Positions 45,261 through 54,404 of a stretch of 64,000 nt of DNA are shown piece by piece. The notes beneath the pieces are model-generated. The model saw only the letters and a program-made list of their open reading frames with translations. It was not told where the DNA came from and ran no database searches. The stretch covers positions 9,342 through 73,341 of the forward strand of contig JAKAQM010000001.1 in NCBI GenBank assembly GCA_021822565.1, written 5' to 3'. Made by a program: the position numbers and the translations under genes. Positions within the stretch are counted from its first letter, which is position 1. Every line of letters begins with the position of its first letter. This stretch comes from Actinomycetes bacterium. GTDB taxonomy: Bacteria; Actinomycetota; Acidimicrobiia; Acidimicrobiales; RAAP-2.

Positions 45261-45722
45261 GTGGGCACGTCGAACCGAGCCGAGAAGGCCGCGTCGGCTG
45301 GCGCGGCTCGCTCGGGGCACCGTCAGCTCCCCCACACCGCCGATCGGGTGCTGGAGGCGTGGGGCCCAGACCGCGCCACGTGCCTCTCGGAGGCGCTGCT
45401 CGCGCTCGTCGAGATCTTCGCCGAGGTGCCGGACCAGGCGACCGCCGACGTGCTGGCGCTCGGGGCCCCCGCAGGTGGTGCGCAGGACGTGCTCGTGTCG
45501 CTGCTCGAAGAGGTGATCTACGTGGTCGACGCGCTCGGCGTCGTGCCGGTCCGCTTTCACCTTGCCGAGGCGGAGGACGGCAGCCTCGCGGGGGACATGG
45601 AGGTGGTGCCCACGAGCGACGTCGAGCTCGTGGGACCGGTGCCCAAGGGGGTCTCGTACCACGCCTTGGAGATCGCTCCGTCGGACGGAGGATGGCGATG
45701 CCGCGTGCTCGTGGACGTGTGA
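45261..45722 (+). CDS. archease
   Basis: LPHTADRVLEAWGP N-terminal motif and C-terminal KGVSYHALEI. GTG is the only in-frame start. Confidence 0.8.
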   Translation: MGTSNRAEKAASAGAARSGHRQLPHTADRVLEAWGPDRATCLSEALLALVEIFAEVPDQATADVLALGAPAGGAQDVLVSLLEEVIYVVDALGVVPVRFHLAEAEDGSLAGDMEVVPTSDVELVGPVPKGVSYHALEIAPSDGGWRCRVLVDV

Positions 45723-45738: not shown

Positions 45739-46365
45739 TCAAGCCGGCTTGGTCGCGGTGCCGAGGTAGAGGTACCCGAAGGGCCGAAGCGCCAGCGGCC
45801 CGGGCAGCTGGAGGTTCCGGAGCTTGCCGGGGGCGAAGCCGGCTTCTGCCACGAGCCGGTCGATCGGGCGATCGAGCTGGCAGCCAGCGGCGATGCGGCC
45901 CTGCAGCGGGTTGAGCCGGCGCTGCCAGCGGGCCACCGATGCACAAGGCGCGAGCCCGTGCTCCAAGAAGGTGAAGGTCCCTCCGGGGCGGAGGACCCGG
46001 AGCAGCTCCGCCAGCGCGGTGCCGGGATCGGGGATCGTGCACAGCGTGAAGGTCGAGACCGCGGCGTCGACCGACGAGCTCTCGACGGAGAGCCCCTGGG
46101 CGTCGGCGCCGACGAGCTCGACCGGGACAGGGGAAGCGGCGATCCGCTTGGCGGCCAGCCGGGCGGCGACTTCCGAGGGCTCGACGGCGAGCACCCTGCG
46201 CACCTCGGGCGGGTAGAAGGCGAGGTTCGACCCGGAGCCGAAGCCGACCTCGACCACGTCGCCGCGCAACCCGCCGACCGTCTCCTCCCGTAGACGGCGG
46301 ATCTCGGCCGTGTCGAGCAGGAGGTCGGTCGCCCGGGGGACGACCTCATCCCTCCAGATGCCCAT
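45739..46365 (-). CDS. class I SAM-dependent methyltransferase
   Basis: VVEVGFGSGSN (motif I), VDAAVSTF, LRVLRPGGTFTFLEH. The start lies 20 nt inside the LysR 3' end. Confidence 0.8.
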   Translation of the reverse strand: MGIWRDEVVPRATDLLLDTAEIRRLREETVGGLRGDVVEVGFGSGSNLAFYPPEVRRVLAVEPSEVAARLAAKRIAASPVPVELVGADAQGLSVESSSVDAAVSTFTLCTIPDPGTALAELLRVLRPGGTFTFLEHGLAPCASVARWQRRLNPLQGRIAAGCQLDRPIDRLVAEAGFAPGKLRNLQLPGPLALRPFGYLYLGTATKPA

Positions 46366-47344
46366 GGCGAGATCTTCGCGGGGATTCCTCGCGGGCTGCC
46401 CGCGGGGAGCCCGAGGAACGCGCGCGGGAGACGGCCGAGCCAGCGCCCTCCGCCAGCGTGACGAGGTGTGCCCAGAAGGCATCGAGCGCGGGCGAGTGGG
46501 ACGCCGGCCGGCGCAGGGCGGAGAGGGTGCGCCTCAGGGCGGGTCGTTCGGTGGCCAGCCGGCACAGGCGGCCGGCGTCGAGGTCGTCGCCGATCGCCGC
46601 GAGGGGTAAGACCGCGAATCCCAGCCCGGCGAGCACGGCCGCGCGTACCGCGTCGACCTGGCCGAGCTCGAGGACCGGCCCTGCGCGGTAGGCGGGGCCG
46701 AGCAGCTCGGCCGCGAGCGCCTCGGTGCCCGAGCCCCCCTCGCGCGCGAGGTAGCGGTGGGCGGCCAGTTCGGCCGCAAGCACGGTGCCGCGTCGGGCGA
46801 GCGGGTGCCCGGCGGACGCCACGACCACGAGCTCGTCGGTCCCGACCCCCCGCTCCTCGAGCCCGTCGTGTGTGTCCGGGCCCTCCACCAGTGCGCAGTC
46901 GACCTTGGCCTCGCGCAAGAGGCCGATCGCCTCACGGGTGTTCACCGTCCGGACGCGCAGACCCACCCCCGGGTGACGGTCGAGGAAGCCGGCCACCCAC
47001 GCCGGCACGCGGTAGATCCCGATGGTGTTGCTGGCGGCAATGGTGAGCTCGCCTTCGAGGAGCCCAGCTCTGGCAGCGGCGGCCTCCTCGAGCGAACGCA
47101 AGGCGGCGAGCGCGGAGGACACGGCAGGGAGCAGGGCTCGACCGTCGGCGGTGAGGCGCACGCCTCGACCGACGCGCTCGAACACCGCCAGCCCGAGCTT
47201 GCGTTCGAGCGCTTTCAGCTGGTGGCTCACCGCGGGCTGGGTCAGGCCCAGCGCGCTGGCCGCCCTGGTGACGTGCTGGTGCTCGGCGACGACCGCGAAC
47301 GTCCGGAGCTGCTCGACGGTGAGCGAGCTGGAGGGAGCTCGCAA
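46346..47344 (-). CDS. LysR family transcriptional regulator
   Basis: LTVEQLRTFAVVAEHQHVTRAASALGLTQPAVSHQLKALE. TTG 47344 is preferred over ATG 47383 because the 13 intervening codons have third positions that are mostly A/T, unlike every other gene in the window. Confidence 0.8.
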   Translation of the reverse strand: MRAPSSSLTVEQLRTFAVVAEHQHVTRAASALGLTQPAVSHQLKALERKLGLAVFERVGRGVRLTADGRALLPAVSSALAALRSLEEAAAARAGLLEGELTIAASNTIGIYRVPAWVAGFLDRHPGVGLRVRTVNTREAIGLLREAKVDCALVEGPDTHDGLEERGVGTDELVVVASAGHPLARRGTVLAAELAAHRYLAREGGSGTEALAAELLGPAYRAGPVLELGQVDAVRAAVLAGLGFAVLPLAAIGDDLDAGRLCRLATERPALRRTLSALRRPASHSPALDAFWAHLVTLAEGAGSAVSRARSSGSPRAAREESPRRSRHGHLEG

Positions 47345-47381
47345 GTATTCATGAAGTTCCGTAATGGTAATAATAGAATAC
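47345..47381. promoter_or_regulatory. dyad symmetry in an AT-rich island, candidate LysR binding site
   Basis: GTATTC (47345-47350) ... GAATAC (47376-47381), 25 nt apart. Nested 8-bp palindrome TTCATGAA at 47348-47355 and GTAAT-G-GTAAT direct repeat. Confidence 0.3.
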
Positions 47382-47387
47382 ATTCCT

Positions 47388-47416
47388 TTGACGCGGGGCA
47401 ACTTCCTCTTTAGGTT
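47388..47416 (+). promoter_or_regulatory. candidate promoter giving a leaderless transcript for the Mo-oxidoreductase operon
   Basis: TTGACG at 47388-47393, a 17-nt spacer, then TAGGTT at 47411-47416. The GTG start at 47423 lies 7 nt after the -10 and has no SD upstream. Confidence 0.45.
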
Positions 47417-47422
47417 GTCCGA

Positions 47423-48943
47423 GTGCTCGACGTCGCCTCCCCCCCCCGATGGGTGAAGGTCCTCGACCAGACCCGGTGCATCGGGTGCCATGCCTGCACC
47501 ACGGCGTGCAAGTCCGAGAACGAGGTGCCGATCGGGGTCACGCGCACCTACGTGAAGTCGGTGGACGTCGGTACGTTCCCCAACGCCCGCCGCGCCTTCC
47601 AGGTCACTCGGTGCAACCAGTGCGAGGATCCGCCCTGCGTCGAGGCCTGCCCGACGGGGGCCATGTACCGCCGGCCCGACGGCATCGTCGACTTCGACAA
47701 GCGGGTCTGCATCGGGTGCAAGGCCTGCATGGCCGCGTGCCCCTACGACGCCATCTTCATCAATCCCGACGACCACTCGGCTGAGAAGTGCAACTTCTGC
47801 GCCCATAGGCTGGACCTGGGCCTCGAGCCCGCCTGCGTGGTGGTCTGCCCTGTGGAGGCCATCTCCGTCGGGGACCTCTCCGACCCGACGTCCAAGGTCG
47901 CCAAGCTCGTGCAGCGGTCGCCGGTGGCCGTGCGCCGGCCGGAGAAGGAGACCCGTCCGGGGGTCTTCTACCGGGGTGCGGACGGTGCCACGCTGGATCC
48001 GCTGGCTGCTGCCCGACCGACGGGAGGGATCTACGCCTGGGCCGGGCAAGGACCGCCAGGAGCACGTCGCGTCGCAGCCGGTGACCCGCGCGGGCACAAT
48101 TCTTCGGCCGCTGCGATCATCTCCTACGACGTGCCCCACAAGGCCCCCTGGGACTGGCGGGTGAGCCTCTACACCTGGACCAAGGGCATCTCCGCCGGCG
48201 CCTACCTCGCACCCCTCGTTCTCGTGCTGGCCGGTCGGCTGGCGTGGTCGAGCGCCCTGTTCCGCTGGGCGGGGCCGGCGGTCGCGCTGGCCATGCTGGC
48301 GACCACCGGTGCGATCCTCGTGTGGGACCTCGAGCACCCGACGCGGGTGTGGATGCTCTTCGCCCGCCCGCAGTGGCGCAGCTGGCTCGTGCGCGGCGGG
48401 GTGATCATCTCCGCGTACGGGGCTGCCCTTGTCGCCGCGTTGGGCGCCTCGGCGTCGGGGTCGGTCGGGGCAGAGCAGGTGGTGGCGGGCTTCTGCCTCC
48501 CCCTGGCCGCCCTTGCCGCCGGGTACACCGCCTACCTGTTCGCCCAGGCCCGCGGGCGGGACCTCTGGCAGAGCCAGTTGCTCGCGCCGCACCTGCTGGC
48601 GCAGTCGCTCATGGTGGGCGCGGCCGCGCTCTACCTCGTGGGCACCTCGATCGGGACGACGGGTGTCGGGCTCGCCGACCTGCTCGCAGCGACGGCAGCG
48701 CTCCATCTCTTCATGGTGGCGGGTGAGGCCATGCCCAGACACCCGACCGCCCACACCCATATGGCTGTCGCGGAGATGGTGCACGGGCGCTTCGCGGCGT
48801 ACTTCTGGGTCGGGCTCGCGCTCTCGGCCGTCGCAGTCTTCTCCCCGTGGATCGGACCCGTCGGAGCCGTGGCGGCGCTGGTCGGGATCGCAGCCCACAA
48901 GCACGCCTACGTCCAGGCCGGACAGGCGGTGCCGCTCGCATGA
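47423..48943 (+). CDS. fusion of a 4x[4Fe-4S] ferredoxin subunit (PsrB/NrfC/DmsB-like) with an NrfD/PsrC-like integral membrane quinol-interacting subunit
   Basis: Four Cys clusters (CIGCHACTTAC, CNQCEDPPCVEACP, CIGCKACMAACP, CNFCAHR..CVVVCP), then about 270 aa of multi-TM sequence. No N-terminal signal peptide visible. Confidence 0.8.
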   Translation: MLDVASPPRWVKVLDQTRCIGCHACTTACKSENEVPIGVTRTYVKSVDVGTFPNARRAFQVTRCNQCEDPPCVEACPTGAMYRRPDGIVDFDKRVCIGCKACMAACPYDAIFINPDDHSAEKCNFCAHRLDLGLEPACVVVCPVEAISVGDLSDPTSKVAKLVQRSPVAVRRPEKETRPGVFYRGADGATLDPLAAARPTGGIYAWAGQGPPGARRVAAGDPRGHNSSAAAIISYDVPHKAPWDWRVSLYTWTKGISAGAYLAPLVLVLAGRLAWSSALFRWAGPAVALAMLATTGAILVWDLEHPTRVWMLFARPQWRSWLVRGGVIISAYGAALVAALGASASGSVGAEQVVAGFCLPLAALAAGYTAYLFAQARGRDLWQSQLLAPHLLAQSLMVGAAALYLVGTSIGTTGVGLADLLAATAALHLFMVAGEAMPRHPTAHTHMAVAEMVHGRFAAYFWVGLALSAVAVFSPWIGPVGAVAALVGIAAHKHAYVQAGQAVPLA

Positions 48944-51900
48944 GCGCCCCGATGCGCGCCGCCCGCTTCGTGCGCTGGGCCCAACGTGACGGCGGGAACC
49001 GCCAGGCTGATCTCGACCGCATGGAGGCCGCGCTCCGAACTGCCCGCACTGCTGGCGCGGCCGGCGAGGGCTCTGGCGGTGGGGCCCACTACGCAGGCCC
49101 GAGCGGTGGCCACCTCGCCGCCTTCCCGCCGCCGGAGCGATGGGACGACTGGGTGGAGCTGGACTCGCGGTCGTGGCCCGAGCGGTCCGAGCGCCACTAC
49201 CTCCTCGTCCCCACCACGTGCTTCAACTGCGAGTCGGCGTGCGGGCTGCTCGCCTACGTCGACCGGGACACGCTCACCATCCGCAAGCTCGAGGGCAATC
49301 CCGAGCACCCCGGCTCGCGCGGGCGCAACTGCGCCAAGGGACCCGCGACGATCAACCAGGTGACCGACCCCGACCGGGTGCTGTACCCGCTCCGGCGGGT
49401 CGGCGCCAGGGGCGGGGGTGGATGGGAGCGGGTGTCGTGGGACGAGGTGCTCGACGACCTCGCGGGACGGATCCGCCGGGCGATCGAAGAGGATCGCCGC
49501 AACGAGATCATGGTCCACATCGGGCGGCCCGGAGAGGACGGCTTCACCGAGCGGGTGCTGGCCAGCTGGGGGGTCGACGGTCACAACTCGCACACGAACA
49601 TCTGCTCGAGCGGAGGGCGCACCGGCTACCAGTTCTGGATGGGGATCGACCGCCCGAGCCCCGACCACGCCAACGCGAAGGTGATCTACCTCATCAGCTC
49701 GCACCTGGAGACGGGCCACTACTTCAACCCCCACGCCCAACGGATCATCGAAGCGCGGGCGAAGGGGGCGAAGGTGATCGTGGTCGACACCCGGCTCTCC
49801 AACACGGCCACCCACGCCGACTACTGGCTCGCCCCGCAGCCGGGAAGCGAGGCAGCCATCAACCTCGCCATCTGCCGCCACCTGCTCATGACCGGGGCCT
49901 ACGACGCCGACTTCGTCCGCCGGTGGTGGAACTGGGAGGAGTACCTGACGGCCTGCCGTCCGGAGCTGCCGGTGACGTTCGAGGCCTTCGAGCAGGCGTT
50001 GCGCGAAGAGTACGCGGGGTTCACCTTCGAGCTCGCGGCGCAGGAATCGGGGATCGACGCGGCCACGCTCAGGGAGGTGGCAGACGTCGTGGCTGCGGCG
50101 GGGCATCGGTTCTCCGCGCACAACTGGCGGTCCGCGGCTGCCGGCAACCTCGGCGGCTGGCAGGTCAGCCGGACGATCTTCATGATCTCCGCCCTCCTCG
50201 GTGCGGTGGCCTGCGAAGGCGGCACGTTCCCCAACGCCTGGAACAAGTTCGTGCCCCGGCCGATCCACGTGCCCCCGCACCCCGACGTCTGGAACGAGCT
50301 GACCTGGCCGGTCGAGTACCCGCTCGCCCAGAACGAGCTGTCCTTCCTCCTGCCCCAGTTCCTGAAAGACGGGCGCGGGACGCTCGACGTGTACTTCACG
50401 CGTGTCTACAACCCGGTGTGGACCAATCCCGATGGGATGTCCTGGGTCGAGGTGCTGACCGACGAGTCGCTCGTGGGCTGCCACGTGGCGCTGACGCCGA
50501 CGTGGAACGAGACCGCCTACTTCGCCGACTACATCCTGCCGGTGGGGCTCTCCCCGGAGCGCCACGACACCCATTCCTACGAGCAGTACGACGGCCAGTG
50601 GATCGGCTTCCGACAGCCGGTCCTGCGCGAGGCCCGGCGCCGGCTGGGCCAGCCGCTCGACGACACCCGCGACGCCAACCCTGGGGAGGTGTGGGAGGAG
50701 AACGAGCTGTGGATCGAGCTGTCGTGGCGCATCGACCCAGACGGCGCCCTCGGGATCCGCCAGTACTACGAGTCGAAGGCCCGCCCCGGCACGAAGCTGA
50801 GCGTCGAGGAGTACTACGGCTGGATGTTCACCCACTCGGTGCCCGGGCTGCCCGATGCCGCCGCCGCAGAGGGGCTGGCGCCGCTCGACTACATGCGCCG
50901 GCACGGCGCGTTCGAGATCGCCCGCGATGTCGGGGCGCGTCACGAGGAGGCGGTGCCCGACGAGGAGCTCGTCGACGTCGCGGTCGAAGGCTTCGGACGC
51001 GTCTTCTCCGCAGCGCCGGTGCAGCCTCCGACCAACATGGCGCCGACGGCCGCGCCGCCGCCGGACCCGGATGGCAGGCGGCCGGTCGGGGTCGTCGTCG
51101 ACGGCGAGACGGTCGTGCGCCGCGGCTTCCCGACGCCCTCGGGACGCCTCGAGTTCTATTCGTCGACGCTCGCCCGATGGGGTTGGCCCGAGCACGCGTT
51201 GCCCGGCTACATCCGCAGCCACGTCCACCCGTCCGTGCTCGAGCCGGACGAGCTGGTGCTCATCTCGACCTTCCGGCTTCCCACCCACATCCACACCCGG
51301 TCCGCCAACGCCAAGTGGCTCGACGAGCTGGCCCACACCAATCCTCTCTGGGTCCACCCCGCCGATGCCGCTCGGCTCGGCGCCGGGGACCCGGGTGACG
51401 GACCTGCCGCGGACCGTCGGCCGCTCATGACCGGCGACCTCGTGCGGGTCGAGACCGCGATCGGCCATTTCGTCGCCAAGGCGTGGGTCACCGAGGGCAT
51501 CCGGCCCGGGATCGTGGCCTGCAGCCACCACATGGGCCGTTGGAAGCCCGAGGGCCAGGGCGGCGGCCAGGGTCAAGTCATGTCGTCGGTCTCGTTGCAC
51601 CACGAGGGGGAGAGCTGGTCGATGCATGTCCAGCGCGGTCCTCACCCGTACGCGTCGGCGGACCCGGACACGGCCAGGATGTGGTGGACCGAGATCGGCG
51701 TCCACCAGAACCTGACGTTTCCCGTCCATCCGGACCCCATCTCGGGCATGCACTGCTGGCACCAGGCGGTCAGGGTGCGCCGGGCCCAGCCCGGCGACGC
51801 CGTCGGCGACGTCGTCGTCGACACCGCCAAGGCGCGTGCCGTCTACGTCGAGTGGCTGGCGATGACCCGGAGCGCCGCGGAGGTCTCCCCCGACGACACC

Positions 51901-51975
51901 CGCCGTCCCAGCTGGCTCATGCGCCCGCTCAAGCCCTCCGCCTCGGCGTTCACGCTCGCCGTGCCGGTCCCTTGA
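48940..51975 (+). CDS. molybdopterin (bis-MGD) oxidoreductase catalytic subunit, Psr/Phs/Ttr/Arr-like; substrate unknown
   Basis: N-terminal FS0 motif CFNCESACGLLAY..GRNCAKG, then HTNICSSGGRTG and large MGD-binding domains. ATGA overlap at 48940-48943. About 95-aa N-terminal extension without an RRxFLK twin-arginine motif. Confidence 0.85.
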   Translation: MSAPMRAARFVRWAQRDGGNRQADLDRMEAALRTARTAGAAGEGSGGGAHYAGPSGGHLAAFPPPERWDDWVELDSRSWPERSERHYLLVPTTCFNCESACGLLAYVDRDTLTIRKLEGNPEHPGSRGRNCAKGPATINQVTDPDRVLYPLRRVGARGGGGWERVSWDEVLDDLAGRIRRAIEEDRRNEIMVHIGRPGEDGFTERVLASWGVDGHNSHTNICSSGGRTGYQFWMGIDRPSPDHANAKVIYLISSHLETGHYFNPHAQRIIEARAKGAKVIVVDTRLSNTATHADYWLAPQPGSEAAINLAICRHLLMTGAYDADFVRRWWNWEEYLTACRPELPVTFEAFEQALREEYAGFTFELAAQESGIDAATLREVADVVAAAGHRFSAHNWRSAAAGNLGGWQVSRTIFMISALLGAVACEGGTFPNAWNKFVPRPIHVPPHPDVWNELTWPVEYPLAQNELSFLLPQFLKDGRGTLDVYFTRVYNPVWTNPDGMSWVEVLTDESLVGCHVALTPTWNETAYFADYILPVGLSPERHDTHSYEQYDGQWIGFRQPVLREARRRLGQPLDDTRDANPGEVWEENELWIELSWRIDPDGALGIRQYYESKARPGTKLSVEEYYGWMFTHSVPGLPDAAAAEGLAPLDYMRRHGAFEIARDVGARHEEAVPDEELVDVAVEGFGRVFSAAPVQPPTNMAPTAAPPPDPDGRRPVGVVVDGETVVRRGFPTPSGRLEFYSSTLARWGWPEHALPGYIRSHVHPSVLEPDELVLISTFRLPTHIHTRSANAKWLDELAHTNPLWVHPADAARLGAGDPGDGPAADRRPLMTGDLVRVETAIGHFVAKAWVTEGIRPGIVACSHHMGRWKPEGQGGGQGQVMSSVSLHHEGESWSMHVQRGPHPYASADPDTARMWWTEIGVHQNLTFPVHPDPISGMHCWHQAVRVRRAQPGDAVGDVVVDTAKARAVYVEWLAMTRSAAEVSPDDTRRPSWLMRPLKPSASAFTLAVPVP

Positions 51976-51988
51976 TCGGCAGCGCCGG

Positions 51989-52888
51989 TTGATCGGCAAC
52001 GGTCCGTTGGTCGGCACCGTCACCGTCACTCGTCCTGAGCTGGCCCGGACCCTCGCCGCCTCCGTCAGGTCCCCGCTGGACGTCGAAGCCTGCCGACTCC
52101 TCGGGTTGCCGGCACCGCCCGGCGTGGCCGTGCACACCGGGGTCTTCGTGCTCGAGACCCACCCGTATGCCTCTGTCCACCTCGGCGCCGAGGGCATGAT
52201 CGGCGGGGACGCCGGCGACAGGGTCGCCGGGTTCTGGCGAGCGCTGGGGATGGTGCCGCCGCCCGAAGCCGACCATCTCGGGACGCTCCTCGATCTCTAC
52301 GCTCGGCTGGGGGACGAGGAGCTCGCCCTCTCGCGCGCCGATCGACGGCGGGCAGCGGTCGCGAGCGCCCGAGGCGCGCTGCTCTGGGAGCACCTCGCTC
52401 CCTGGGTGCCGGTGTACCTCGCCACCGTGGACCGGGTGGGGGACGGCTTCCATGCCGCATGGGCCAGCCTCGCGGCCGGCGTCGTCTCGGCGGAGGCCGA
52501 CGCGCTGGCACCGCGCGCGGAGCTCCCGACCGCGCTCGTGGTCGCGCCGCCCCCGCTCACCGTGGCCTCCCGCCGCGAGCTGGTCGACGCGGTGCTCGCC
52601 CCGGTGCGCAGCGGTGTGGTGGTCACGCAGGCTGACCTCAGCCGGGCCGGGCGGGACCTCGGGCTGGGGGTGCGGCGAGGTGAACGTCGTTTCGCGCTCG
52701 AGGGGCTGCTCGACCAGGATCCCGCCGCCGTGCTCGCCTGGCTGGCTGCGCTGGCCGCGGAATGGTCTGACCTCCATCGCCACTGGCACTGCGGCGCACT
52801 GGAGCCCGTGGGGCGTTGGTGGGCGGCGCGGGCGCGTGCGTCCGCGGCGGCCCTTGGCGCCGCTGCGCACGCTCCTGTCTCTGGGTGA
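51989..52888 (+). CDS. TorD/DmsD/NarJ-family redox-enzyme maturation chaperone-like protein
   Basis: PYASVHLGAEGMIGGDAGDRVAGFWRALGMVPPPEADHLGTLLDLYARL resembles the core of the TorD family. TTG start is uncertain. Confidence 0.6.
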   Translation: MIGNGPLVGTVTVTRPELARTLAASVRSPLDVEACRLLGLPAPPGVAVHTGVFVLETHPYASVHLGAEGMIGGDAGDRVAGFWRALGMVPPPEADHLGTLLDLYARLGDEELALSRADRRRAAVASARGALLWEHLAPWVPVYLATVDRVGDGFHAAWASLAAGVVSAEADALAPRAELPTALVVAPPPLTVASRRELVDAVLAPVRSGVVVTQADLSRAGRDLGLGVRRGERRFALEGLLDQDPAAVLAWLAALAAEWSDLHRHWHCGALEPVGRWWAARARASAAALGAAAHAPVSG

Positions 52889-53006: not shown

Positions 53007-54404
53007 ATGCGAAGGATCTGGGAGGCGATCGTGCCGAGGTGGGCAGATCGCAACCTGCGGGTGATCCTCGCCGCCCGGGTCGGCATGAGCCTCGGGCGGG
53101 CGATCGCGTCCGTCGTCACCGCGCTCTACCTGGCGGCCATCGGGTTCTCTGCGATCGAGATCGGCGTGCTCTTCGTCGCGGTGACGGTGGCGTCGGCGCT
53201 GATGAGCGCCGGTATCGGCCTGTTCGCCGACCGCTGGGGGCGCAAGCCGTTCCTCGTCGTGGTCCCGCTGATCGCCGCCGGCGCAGCCGTCGTCTACGCG
53301 GAGCTCAGGGTCACGGCGCTCTTGTTCGTCGCCGGCGCGCTCGGTTCCTTCGGTCGGGGCGCCGGCGCTGGTGCGGGGAACATCGGTCCCTACCAGCCGG
53401 CGGAGTCCGCGCTGGTCGCCGACAGCGTGTCAGGTGATCGGCGGGCGGTCGCCTTTGGCCGGATCGCGTTCGCCTCGTCGCTCGGCGCCCTCGTCGGAGG
53501 TCTGGCGGCCGAGGTCGTCCGCACGACCCACCACATGACCGCGGCGGAAGCGACTGCCGCGTACCGTCCGGCGTTCCTCATCGCTGCTGCCCTGGCAGTC
53601 GTGGCCGGGTTGCTCGCCCTGTTGCTCCACGAGCCGTCACGGCCGCCGAAGGAGACCGCCGCGGGTCGTCGTCCGCGGTTCCAATGGCCCCGGCAGTCCT
53701 GGCCGGCACTGTGGCGGTTCTGGGTGACCAACGGGACCAACGGGGCGGCGATCGGCTTGTTCGGGCCGTTCGTGAGCTACTGGCTGTACCGCCGCTACGG
53801 GGCGACTCCGGGGACCATCGGCGTGCTGTTCGCCGTCGTCAACCTGGGCTCGCTGGTCTCCGCCCTCGTCGCGGCCCGCGTCGCCCGCCGGATCGGGACG
53901 GTGCGGGCCATCGTCGTGGTGCGGGCGGTCGGCGGCGCGCTGCTCGTGCCGATGGTGCTGGCTCCCGCGTTCTGGATCGCGGGCGTGATCTACTTCGTAC
54001 GGATGCTGGTGCAGCGGGTCGGCCTGCCCCTGCGCCAGTCGTTCACCCAGGACATGGCCCATCCCGAGGAACGGGCAAGCGTCGCGGCGCTCTCCAACTT
54101 GCCGGCGCAGGCGACGATGGCCGCCGGCCAGGCGGCGGCCGGCTACCTGTTCGACGAGGTCAGCCTGGCAGCGCCGTTCGAGCTGGCGGGACTGCTCCAG
54201 ATCGTGAACGCCCTGGTGTACGGCCTGCTGTTCTCCCTGCGCCCGCCCCGGCGGGCGCAAGCGGCCCAGCAGGGGGGCAACGAGGCCGCTCCTGTGCTCG
54301 TTCCGATGGCAACCTCGACGAGCGCCGGGCCGGCGCCGGTGGAGAGCGGGCGGACGGGCGCCGGCCTCCCCGGGCCCCCAGCGAATCCTCCCGCCGGACC
54401 ATGA
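53007..54404 (+). CDS. MFS transporter
   Basis: About 12 TM segments and an MFS loop FADRWGRKP. GGAGGACGGTGAAGG precedes ATG 53007. Confidence 0.75.
   Translation: MRRIWEAIVPRWADRNLRVILAARVGMSLGRAIASVVTALYLAAIGFSAIEIGVLFVAVTVASALMSAGIGLFADRWGRKPFLVVVPLIAAGAAVVYAELRVTALLFVAGALGSFGRGAGAGAGNIGPYQPAESALVADSVSGDRRAVAFGRIAFASSLGALVGGLAAEVVRTTHHMTAAEATAAYRPAFLIAAALAVVAGLLALLLHEPSRPPKETAAGRRPRFQWPRQSWPALWRFWVTNGTNGAAIGLFGPFVSYWLYRRYGATPGTIGVLFAVVNLGSLVSALVAARVARRIGTVRAIVVVRAVGGALLVPMVLAPAFWIAGVIYFVRMLVQRVGLPLRQSFTQDMAHPEERASVAALSNLPAQATMAAGQAAAGYLFDEVSLAAPFELAGLLQIVNALVYGLLFSLRPPRRAQAAQQGGNEAAPVLVPMATSTSAGPAPVESGRTGAGLPGPPANPPAGP

Follow-up and report, generated by a model that had tools for sequence, protein, structure and literature searches.

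The three-gene operon analyzed here, carried on a 64,000-nucleotide stretch of an Actinomycetes bacterium contig (the window), may encode a cytoplasmic sulfite:menaquinone oxidoreductase complex together with its chaperone, with a function like that of SoeABC in a separate lineage; we regard the chances of this proposal as evenly balanced. Gene neighborhood and co-occurrence among genomes make sulfite the most likely substrate, and oxidation of sulfite to sulfate is the most likely reaction because relatives of the operon almost always accompany genes that detoxify sulfide or persulfide. The sequence points to a catalytic subunit that stays in the cytoplasm, with Mo-bisPGD held on Cys222 and an FS0 cluster, and that docks onto the ferredoxin part of gene 1 with its four clusters. 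A flexible linker (~50 residues) tethers this part to the NrfD anchor, whose eight helices are inserted upside-down relative to PsrC. In the proposed mechanism, electrons would pass from the substrate through Mo, FS0, and four [4Fe-4S] clusters to menaquinone at the anchor, while a NarJ/TorD-like protein would hold the apo-enzyme by its N-terminal helix pending cofactor insertion, as NarJ does for NarG. By converting sulfite to sulfate, the complex would clear the cytoplasmic sulfite made by persulfide dioxygenase (PDO) during sulfide and persulfide detoxification and would feed two electrons into the respiratory chain. The sulfite/sulfate couple, at about -516 mV, easily reduces menaquinone. 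The features of the locus are given in Table 1.

Table 1. Features of the operon and its immediate surroundings in the window.
Feature	Position	Strand	Basis or remark
LysR-family regulator, 333 aa	46346..47347	-	Pfam HTH_1 (E 3e-22), LysR_substrate (E 5e-46)
AT-rich divergent intergenic region, LysR start to gene 1 GTG	47348..47422		Sequence read
Operon, genes 1 to 3	47423-52888	+	All three genes found where the sequence-only reading had placed them
Gene 1, electron-transfer and membrane-anchor fusion, 506 aa	47423..48943	+	GTG start
Gene 1, PsrB-like four-[4Fe-4S] ferredoxin	residues 9-187		
Gene 1, flexible linker, ~50 residues	residues 193-242		Disordered in AlphaFold model
Gene 1, eight-helix NrfD/PsrC-type quinone-interacting anchor	residues 243-506		
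Gene 2, Mo-bisPGD catalytic subunit, 1011 aa	48940..51975	+	ATG at 48940, ATGA overlap with gene 1 stop
Gene 2, N-terminal extension, residues 1-62	48940..49125	+	No Tat motif, no hydrophobic region
Gene 2, FS0 [4Fe-4S] motif C94-x2-C97-x3-C101 ... C131	49219..49332	+	Pfam Molybdop_Fe4S4
Gene 2, Cys222 codon (HNSHTNICSSGGR), predicted Mo ligand	49603..49605	+	Alignment with PsrA, ArrA
Gene 3, NarJ/TorD/DmsD-family maturation chaperone, 299 aa	51989..52888	+	TTG start uncertain
MFS transporter	53007..54404	+	Pfam MFS_1; 3' of operon

The sequence-only reading had described gene 1 as a four-cluster ferredoxin fused to an NrfD domain without a signal peptide, and this description was borne out by Pfam (Fer4_11, E 8e-24; NrfD over residues 240 to 497, E 7e-12), by 16 cysteines in four groups of the CxxCxxCxxxC type, and by an AlphaFold model (pTM 0.80) in which the single chain matches both 2vpw_B (TM 0.87, 49% identity) and 2vpw_C (TM 0.72). 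A sequence search also recovered the PsrB chain 2vpw_B (E 3e-52), and among NCBIfam models the ferredoxin domain matched TtrB best; the NrfD domain alone had no PDB match by sequence, but the fold search does reach PsrC. Since only 18 residues precede the first cysteine, the protein has no signal peptide. The fusion is kept as a single full-length match in 66 of the best 80 named-species loci. Gene 2, correctly read as an ATGA-coupled protein of 1011 aa with an FS0 motif and no Tat motif, matches the Pfam families Molybdop_Fe4S4, Molybdopterin, and Molydop_binding. Its Cys222 aligns with the cysteine of Thermus thermophilus PsrA (SLCTA) and of Shewanella ArrA (SVCAE), which we take to be the Mo ligand of those enzymes, and Cys222 is therefore the predicted ligand here. 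Among NCBIfam models, PhsA (NF012032) scored 174 bits against a cut-off of 694, TtrA 86 bits against 1750, and narG 23 bits, and similarity to the DmsA/YnfE and ArrA models was weak. The nearest solved or curated relatives are polysulfide and thiosulfate reductases.

Gene 3 had been likened to TorD, DmsD, and NarJ, in agreement with its match to Pfam Nitrate_red_del (PF02613) at 41.5 bits, above the gathering cut-off of 22.2 (E 1.7e-10). It shares 40 to 45% identity with its positional counterparts in three other loci (L004 to L006), and a chaperone gene lies directly 3' of the structural genes in 46 of the best 80 named loci. Within the N-terminal extension of gene 2, the family motif L..L..RV.AAR...EARGETFY is represented by the helix LDRMEAALRTAR. 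We compared motif and chaperone gene across 23 related loci, and the motif was present in 12 of the 12 with the gene versus 0 of the 11 without it, the latter being those with a readable upstream frame. This exact co-occurrence supports action of the chaperone on the extension, which is probably a chaperone-binding remnant. The link is limited to one subclade and thus may reflect a single event.

The proposal of a cytoplasm-facing, quinone-linked Mo enzyme was supported by the lack of Tat signals and by the membrane topology, with motifs read by eye and topology taken from hydropathy, AlphaFold helices, and Lys/Arg counts. An RRxFLK motif followed by a hydrophobic region was absent from the N terminus of gene 2, a Tat motif was likewise absent from eight homologue N termini and from the upstream frames of 23 related loci, and none of the family members examined had a Tat signal on the soluble modules of either protein. 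In 28 fused proteins, the ferredoxin-side loops carry 6 to 16 Lys+Arg per ~80 residues versus 0 to 3 per ~25 on the far side, whereas four separate NrfD subunits of Tat-type relatives carry 2 to 4 (one 9) versus 3 (one 8), so that their loop density is reversed or flat compared with that of the fused proteins. By the positive-inside rule, a statistical predictor, this flipped bias supports an orientation toward the cytoplasm. Both termini of PsrC lie on the PsrB side (PMC8076601), and direct fusion of B to C is therefore geometrically natural. Three close relatives in the same clade, P0129, P0152, and P0189, are Tat-exported and show the form that the motif takes in this clade, which would favor a periplasm-facing enzyme that uses an unrecognized signal or partner protein. 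Such an arrangement is nevertheless very improbable, given the missing motif and hydrophobic region on both proteins of the members examined, the flipped loop charges, the lack of a small Tat-bearing partner gene in the operon, and the need for a folded N-terminal four-cluster domain, placed before eight helices, to cross the membrane.

The operon is an intact member of a highly conserved family, with 56 to 79% identity across phyla. At least 595 species from many phyla carry it, as do about 10% of the Actinomycetota sampled (301 genomes). Cultured carriers are Rhodococcus jostii RHA1, Thermomicrobium roseum, Ferrimicrobium acidiphilum, and Natrinema. The layout, which had been called atypical, is standard for this family, and the premise that such operons are usually ordered A-B-C does not hold for this branch, whose Tat-bearing relatives are B-C-A. 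The ttrBCA and srdBCA operons have the same order. The B-C-A order and the B-C fusion are the family norm, inherited from B-C-A ancestors, and the operon is therefore no oddity.

In a tree of catalytic subunits (35 sequences, 868 columns), the family and three Tat-bearing representatives formed one clade (SH-aLRT 100) that was nested within Tat-type B-C-A relatives (support 97). Outside it lay Proteus TtrA, PhsA from an E. coli plasmid, and the SoeA-like proteins, a separate clade with support of 100 whose members were picked by architecture, subunit sizes, and a neighboring sat gene and do not include the published Allochromatium vinosum protein. AU tests rejected joint clades of the family with the SoeA-like proteins (p 1e-12) and with TtrA (p 8e-4). 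Orthology with SoeA was rejected once gammaproteobacterial SoeABC-like operons had been found, placed in the tree, and subjected to the AU test. Plasmid-borne SoeA candidates from Phaeobacter, Thioclava, and Agrobacterium, and from Methylophaga, Bradyrhizobium, and Caballeronia, were discarded as unrelated soluble or truncated Mo enzymes. The literature searched yielded no characterized enzyme of the same architecture. The lineage would have originated from Tat-exported B-C-A enzymes that lost the signal, inverted the anchor, and fused B with C.

Genes for PDO/MBL-rhodanese, SQR-like, TusA, or DsrE proteins lie within ~8 kb of the operon in 20 of 28 loci, often in the same operon. The Aciditerrimonas operon has PDO-rhodanese and SQR-like neighbors, and plasmid pRHL3 of R. 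jostii RHA1 carries the order DsrE-TusA-BC-A-Mrp between MBL and ArsR genes. Among the best 80 loci of named species, drawn from many phyla and read with 2.5 kb of flank, a PDO-type gene was present in 24 and TusA and/or DsrE in 10 (TusA 10, DsrE 9). PDO-rhodanese was encoded in 29 of the 30 carriers among the 301 Actinomycetota genomes, the present one included, versus 79 of 271 non-carriers (Fisher p 1.7e-13, with counts uncorrected for shared ancestry). The window copy is itself flanked by archease, methyltransferase, and MFS genes, with no sulfur genes within ~10 kb, which counts against the sulfite reading; the sulfur genes of this genome are dispersed, and PDO-rhodanese, SQR-like, DsrE, and TusA genes all lie elsewhere than the operon. 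The substrate had been called unknown, but neighborhood and co-occurrence implicate sulfite or a closely related sulfur species. Direct sulfite oxidases (SUOX, SorAB, SoeABC) are reported to be scarce among heterotrophs that carry SQR and PDO (PMC12345210).

Two points weigh against free sulfite: given the TusA and DsrE genes in these operons, the enzyme could instead act on carrier-bound sulfane sulfur or on thiosulfate, and PDO-rhodanese fusions are expected to turn much of the sulfite into thiosulfate. The same inward-facing complex might thus oxidize or reduce another sulfur substrate at the expense of the quinone pool, namely thiosulfate, polysulfide, or sulfane sulfur or thiosulfonate delivered by TusA/DsrE, an explanation that we consider rather unlikely. 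DsrE and TusA genes stand directly before or after the structural genes in several lineages (L013, L068, L074, L086, and L087), YeeE-type sulfur transporter genes adjoin the operon of a Myxococcota contig (two of them, together with PDO-rhodanese), and the nearest solved and curated relatives, as noted, reduce polysulfide and thiosulfate. However, loci with PDO among the best 80 named mostly lack TusA or DsrE, with SQR and PDO alongside, reduction of polysulfide or thiosulfate would be a futile cycle, and by established potentials the conversion of thiosulfate to tetrathionate cannot easily reduce menaquinone.

Were the sulfur neighborhood incidental to the LysR-controlled window copy, the operon could encode a quinol-dependent reductase of the cytoplasm whose role is to detoxify an S- or N-oxide or some unrelated oxyanion (selenate, tellurate, arsenate, chlorate, or nitrate). 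The absence of sulfur neighbors from the window copy, its own LysR and MFS genes, the ease with which members of this superfamily switch substrate, and the weak DmsA/YnfE and ArrA similarity would all fit, yet we judge this improbable in view of the 72 to 79% identity of the window protein to copies within sulfur clusters, the conservation across phyla, which argues for a single function, and the PDO-rhodanese genes of the carriers. A formate:quinone oxidoreductase is less credible still. The formate dehydrogenase signature is a Sec or Cys ligand followed by His, whereas Cys222 is followed by Ser, and the formate dehydrogenase models of NCBIfam gave 95 to 125 bits against cut-offs of 666 to 814, below even the PhsA score; formate dehydrogenase was rejected on this ligand motif and these scores. 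In addition, the tree puts the family within the Psr/Phs-type radiation, and no formate-related neighbors were seen among the loci examined. The idea derives from Calisto and Pereira, who tentatively proposed "FqoABC" for an uncharacterized NrfD group of Actinobacteria, Chlorobi, and Crenarchaeota (PMC8076601); that group occurs in 7% of Actinobacteria, near the 10% of the present family, and a Tat-bearing Sulfolobales relative exists, but the two are matched by description only.

The closest functional model for the proposed sulfite oxidation is SoeABC (A. vinosum, Aquifex aeolicus, Ruegeria pomeroyi; EC 1.8.5.6), a membrane-bound Mo-bisPGD enzyme without a Tat signal, for which an inverted anchor and a cytoplasm-facing active site are predicted (PMC8076601). 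Both lack signal peptides and have inward-facing catalytic and FeS modules (predicted here by sequence), and they share a catalytic subunit of about 960 to 1000 residues, a genetic link to cytoplasmic sulfur oxidation, and the same proposed reaction and direction (here from gene context). They are not orthologous, however: gammaproteobacterial A-B-C SoeA-like proteins show ~30% identity over only ~250 residues, and SoeABC has three separate subunits ordered A-B-C where the present family has a BC fusion before A. In one SoeA-like example (L059; 966, 243, and 325 aa, adjoining an ATP sulfurylase gene), the anchor falls into Pfam DmsC instead of NrfD. PSRLC3 of green sulfur bacteria is likewise signal-less with a fused PsrB/PsrC-like subunit; it is encoded by two genes (PMC5473276) and is described in the literature as an inferred sulfite-oxidizing system, so that by description it resembles our family in architecture and proposed role. 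No Chlorobi locus was among the best 80 of the contig search, and if the green-sulfur-bacterial complexes are SoeABC, as a review passage paraphrasing Dahl 2013 treats them, PSRLC3 would belong to a different lineage from the present one.

For both polypeptides, the closest solved or curated relatives are found in PsrABC of T. thermophilus (PDB 2VPW) and PhsABC, which share the Cys ligand, FS0 cluster, and four-cluster PsrB fold. T. thermophilus PsrC also has an eight-helix NrfD-type anchor; for the PhsABC encoded on an E. coli plasmid, the annotation of the anchor is a cytochrome b subunit. Unlike the present family, Psr and Phs are Tat-exported and periplasm-facing, have separate subunits ordered A-B-C, and have a catalytic subunit ~250 residues shorter than gene 2. 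TtrBCA and SrdBCA share with the family the gene order and a catalytic subunit of ~1000 residues but are Tat-exported with separate B and C, and Proteus TtrA, as noted, lies outside the clade. NarGHJI offers the precedent of a Mo enzyme that faces the cytoplasm and has an N-terminal remnant to which a chaperone of the NarJ family, the Pfam family of gene 3, binds, although its catalytic subunit is unrelated at family level and it has an Asp ligand and the heme b anchor NarI, not NrfD.

Heterotrophic bacteria commonly oxidize sulfide by way of SQR and persulfide dioxygenase, a route that ends in toxic sulfite. More broadly, we tentatively propose, at somewhat less than even confidence, that the family with fused BC and A is a hitherto unrecognized, separate sulfite (or sulfite/sulfane-sulfur):menaquinone oxidoreductase that came to face the cytoplasm independently of SoeABC, from a Tat-exported B-C-A ancestor. 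Through it, for the most part, aerobic heterotrophs of soil and water (Actinomycetota, Acidobacteriota, Gemmatimonadota, Chloroflexota, and haloarchaea) would complete this oxidation to sulfate, a step missed by standard annotation. If so, the family would fill the sulfite-oxidase gap, and it would alter the reading of sulfur-cycle gene surveys because current annotations give its members only the generic names "molybdopterin-dependent oxidoreductase" or "anaerobic selenocysteine-containing dehydrogenase." It would also be a second, independent complex iron-sulfur molybdoenzyme that faces the cytoplasm with an inverted NrfD anchor, which bears on how such anchors couple to the proton gradient.

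Around the operon, an MFS homologue was adjacent in 0 of 107 other loci examined, and membership of the MFS gene in the operon unit is doubtful. The intergenic region between LysR and gene 1 presumably contains both promoters and the LysR operator; a scan for promoter and terminator consensus sequences gave nothing useful, with no promoter-like match to a simple sigma-70 consensus in this region. LysR homologues with 32 to 37% identity adjoin the operon in L005, L080 to L083, L089, and L093, and this recurrence in other lineages makes LysR a plausible local regulator of the operon, as had been proposed.

The three genes recognized in the sequence-only reading, and the LysR gene divergent from them, lie in DNA with a G+C content of approximately 71%. 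The gene 1 protein contains Pfam Fer4_11 and related four-iron domains (residues 9 to 151), with four cluster-binding groups and 16 cysteines in all, and an NrfD domain (residues 240 to 497). Its first 190 residues were matched by PsrB of Thermus thermophilus (E value, 3e-52), and its best curated match was TtrB, at a score far under the cutoff. The gene 1 stop codon and the gene 2 ATG overlap as ATGA (48940 to 48943). The FS0 cysteines of the gene 2 protein are C94, C97, C101, and C131, and Cys222 (HNSHTNICSS) is the predicted Mo ligand, being aligned with the cysteine of the corresponding motif in PsrA and ArrA, which we take to be the Mo ligand of those enzymes. The gene calls, domains, and motifs therefore bear out the original description of the operon.

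Features of the molybdoenzyme operon and its flanks (coordinates are those of the window)
Feature	Coordinates	Strand	Basis
Gene 1, fused ferredoxin-anchor subunit, 506 aa, GTG start	47423-48943	+	Pfam
Gene 2, catalytic subunit, 1011 aa	ATG at 48940	+	Molybdop_Fe4S4, Molybdopterin, Molydop_binding (Pfam)
Gene 3, NarJ/TorD family	51989-52888	+	Above Pfam threshold
LysR gene, divergent from operon	46346-47347	-	Pfam
MFS transporter gene, 3' of operon	53007-54404		

The gene 2 stop codon and the TTG start of gene 3 lie within repeated TTGATCGGCA-like words (51972 to 52018), and the true start of gene 3 is uncertain. Where gene calls are available for homologous loci (three cases), the chaperone and Mo genes share 4 nucleotides, an overlap that the window does not have. 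The MFS transporter has a 54%-identical paralogue on another contig of the genome (C210:5460-6665), and the MFS gene beside the operon was not conserved in any other locus examined.

The enzyme had been proposed to face the cytoplasm. In gene 1, 18 residues precede the first cluster cysteine, and gene 2 encodes a hydrophilic 62-residue extension followed by a conserved PPxERWDDW motif. A twin-arginine motif with a hydrophobic stretch was not found in eight homologues from several actinobacterial orders, in four aligned fusion proteins, or in the upstream frames of 23 related loci; exported members of the same clade carry a textbook Tat signal, such as MAMHRRTFLKAAALTSGAAAAVVG in the representative protein P0129. 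Hydropathy and an AlphaFold model that drew on 35 sequences (pTM, 0.80; pLDDT of >90 for most of the membrane region) place eight helices in the gene 1 protein after a disordered linker (residues 193 to 242), and this single chain matched both PsrB (TM, 0.87) and PsrC (TM, 0.72) of 2VPW. Both termini of PsrC are on the PsrB-docking side (PMC8076601), and therefore a fusion of the B C terminus to the C N terminus is a natural one. Among 28 fused proteins, the ferredoxin-side loops contained 6 to 16 Lys plus Arg per approximately 80 residues and the far-side loops 0 to 3 per approximately 25, whereas in the same alignment columns the density was reversed or flat in four separate NrfD subunits of Tat-type relatives. 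By the positive-inside rule, this bias predicts that the ferredoxin domain, and the catalytic subunit with it, is cytoplasmic and that the anchor has the opposite orientation to PsrC. The missing export signal and a loop-charge bias opposite to that of the Tat-type relatives thus argue for the proposed orientation.

Homologues of this enzyme are widespread. A search of 5.8 billion proteins returned at least 8000 candidates, the best 120 of which were 71 to 93% identical, and of 301 Actinomycetota genomes sampled evenly, 30 contained a match at an E value of ≤1e-100 that was 56 to 72% identical to the window protein. With one genome scanned per species, hits numbered at least 595; identity was 62 to 74% in the best 80, which included, from the Actinomycetota, a Mycobacterium sp., Micromonospora, Trebonia, and Ferrimicrobium acidiphilum and, from other phyla, members of the Acidobacteriota, Gemmatimonadota, Chloroflexota, Dormiibacterota, Binatia, and Planctomycetota. 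Plasmid records added Thermomicrobium roseum, Rhodococcus jostii RHA1, and several haloarchaea. At the named loci of those best 80 of at least 595 hits, the fused gene was matched in one piece and at full length immediately upstream in 66/80 and a chaperone gene followed the catalytic gene in 46/80. In Tat-bearing relatives, exemplified by a metagenomic contig, Azoarcus pAZKH, and Sulfurovum, B and C are separate genes and the order is again B, C, A, chaperone; ttrBCA and srdBCA have the same B-C-A order. The gene order is therefore inherited; the premise that such operons usually run A-B-C fails for this branch, and the layout first described as atypical is the norm of the family. Operons of the nrfD-hybA-bisC type with TorD/DmsD-like genes in Gram-positive bacteria were catalogued by Bay et al. 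in 2015 (PMC4464133), and we found no characterized family member in the searchable literature. The family is extraordinary and unstudied; this operon is one of its ordinary members.

Our first suspicion was an actinobacterial SoeABC, a sulfite:quinone oxidoreductase. A SoeA-like set, recognized by architecture rather than from published SoeA proteins, was drawn from 201 genomes belonging to the same class as a Sedimenticola metagenome-assembled genome (MAG); approximately 35 of these contained a 960- to 1000-aa frame matching only query residues 90 to 335, at approximately 30% identity. Comparison locus L059, which adjoins an ATP sulfurylase gene, encodes a signal-less A subunit of 966 aa (start, MFEKSVAKAP...TTCYMCACRCG), a four-cluster ferredoxin B of 243 aa, and a C of 325 aa that matches Pfam DmsC, not NrfD; these sizes and their order are presumably those of published SoeABC. 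The placement of the catalytic subunit called for by the sequence-only reading was obtained from a maximum-likelihood tree of 35 sequences and 868 columns, in which the signal-less family and three Tat-bearing representatives formed one clade (SH-aLRT, 100) inside the Tat-type B-C-A relatives (support, 97). Six SoeA-like sequences, Proteus TtrA (which passes the curated cutoff), and a plasmid PhsA all fell outside this clade. AU tests rejected a joint clade of the family with the SoeA-like sequences (p 1e-12) or with TtrA (p 8e-4) and were compatible with the signal-less form having arisen once (p 0.27). On the tree and the AU test against the SoeA-like sequences, an actinobacterial SoeABC is rejected. 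An NrfD group of Actinobacteria, Chlorobi, and Crenarchaeota was tentatively labeled "Fqo" (formate:quinone oxidoreductase) by Calisto and Pereira (PMC8076601); a formate dehydrogenase is unlikely here, because Ser follows Cys222 and formate dehydrogenase models score low.

The PLSDB record that supplied the genuine TtrA (NZ_OL790812.1; loci L064 and L067) is a 4.09-Mb Proteus mirabilis "plasmid" that is evidently a chromosome. Representatives P0217 and P0286, from Sulfolobales MAGs, correspond to a Tat-bearing 1277-aa Sulfolobaceae protein 43% identical to the window's catalytic subunit, and therefore the archaeal part of the clade comprises exported proteins as well as the signal-less haloarchaeal ones. 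A PhnD/SsuA-like periplasmic binding protein gene adjoins Tat-exported proteobacterial B-C-A relatives in Azoarcus sp. KH32C pAZKH (L016, 242 to 3925) and in the Sedimenticola MAG (L024, 3345 to 4217). The Azoarcus locus additionally encodes a histidine kinase and a sigma-54 regulator alongside, an arrangement reminiscent of the AioXSR/ArxXSR oxyanion sensors.

We analyzed 28 loci by tblastn (the window, seven named loci, and twenty from the Actinomycetota sample). Genes for persulfide dioxygenase (PDO)/rhodanese-type metallo-beta-lactamase (MBL) fold proteins, sulfide:quinone reductase (SQR)-like proteins, TusA, or DsrE lay within approximately 8 kb in 20/28, often codirectional with and abutting the operon, and ArsR-type regulators were frequent. 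On Rhodococcus jostii RHA1 pRHL3 the order is DsrE-TusA-fusion-Mo subunit-Mrp (structural genes RHA1_RS43840 and RHA1_RS43835), with three MBL genes, two ArsR genes, and one thioredoxin gene around it; a Myxococcota contig carries PDO-rhodanese, two YeeE-type genes, fusion, and Mo subunit; and in Aciditerrimonas the operon adjoins PDO-rhodanese and SQR-like genes, behind LysR and WhiB genes. Within 2.5-kb flanks, a PDO-type gene was present in 24, and TusA and/or DsrE in 10 (TusA in 10, DsrE in 9), of the best 80 of at least 595 hits. In the Actinomycetota sample, PDO-rhodanese was found in 29/30 carriers versus 79/271 noncarriers (Fisher p 1.7e-13, kinship ignored). In the window's genome, genes for PDO-rhodanese, SQR-like proteins, DsrE, TusA, and ArsR lie on contigs other than that of the operon.

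PDO releases sulfite in the cytoplasm, and sulfite is a reductant strong enough for menaquinone reduction. A recent survey notes few direct sulfite oxidases where sqr and pdo are abundant (PMC12345210). The most economical reading, whose chances we put at about even, is that the enzyme would be a cytoplasmic sulfite:menaquinone oxidoreductase, working like SoeABC but belonging to a different lineage. A possible counterpart is PSRLC3 of green sulfur bacteria, described in the literature as a two-gene complex inferred to oxidize sulfite (PMC5473276). Because the cytoplasmic face would host both half-reactions, sulfite oxidation and quinone reduction, no redox loop would be expected, and any energy gain would come downstream. 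The earlier interpretation is thus supported and sharpened, with sulfite now the substrate candidate from gene context.

Gene 3, which had been likened to TorD/DmsD/NarJ chaperones, reached the Pfam threshold. All 12 loci with a chaperone gene encode an N-terminal helix motif, L..L..RV.AAR...EARGETFYPGPSR.HLA.F, ahead of PPKERWDDW; the window version is a diverged LDRMEAALRTAR with a Gly-rich insert. At the 11 readable loci that lack the chaperone gene, the N terminus is shorter and of another sequence, and several of these loci encode an Mrp/NBP35 ATPase instead. This co-occurrence fits a NarJ/NarG-like remnant-signal interaction, and because the 12 loci form one subclade it may represent a single evolutionary event.

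In other lineages Mrp/NBP35 directly follows the Mo subunit; in the window's genome, a homologue lies approximately 2 kb from the best SQR-like gene, which is 56% identical to that of Aciditerrimonas (C225:26363-30886). On the operon's own contig, an MBL-fold gene (C59:76073-77119) whose product is 36% identical to a 381-aa MBL protein of the pRHL3 sulfur island lies approximately 15 kb downstream of the operon and 2.7 kb past the window end. An archease gene without rtcB lies approximately 1.6 kb upstream of the operon (45261 to 45722), and in Thermomicrobium roseum an archease-RtcB pair lies approximately 2 kb downstream of the orthologous operon (L014, 12961 to 14879); this proximity in two phyla is probably a coincidence.
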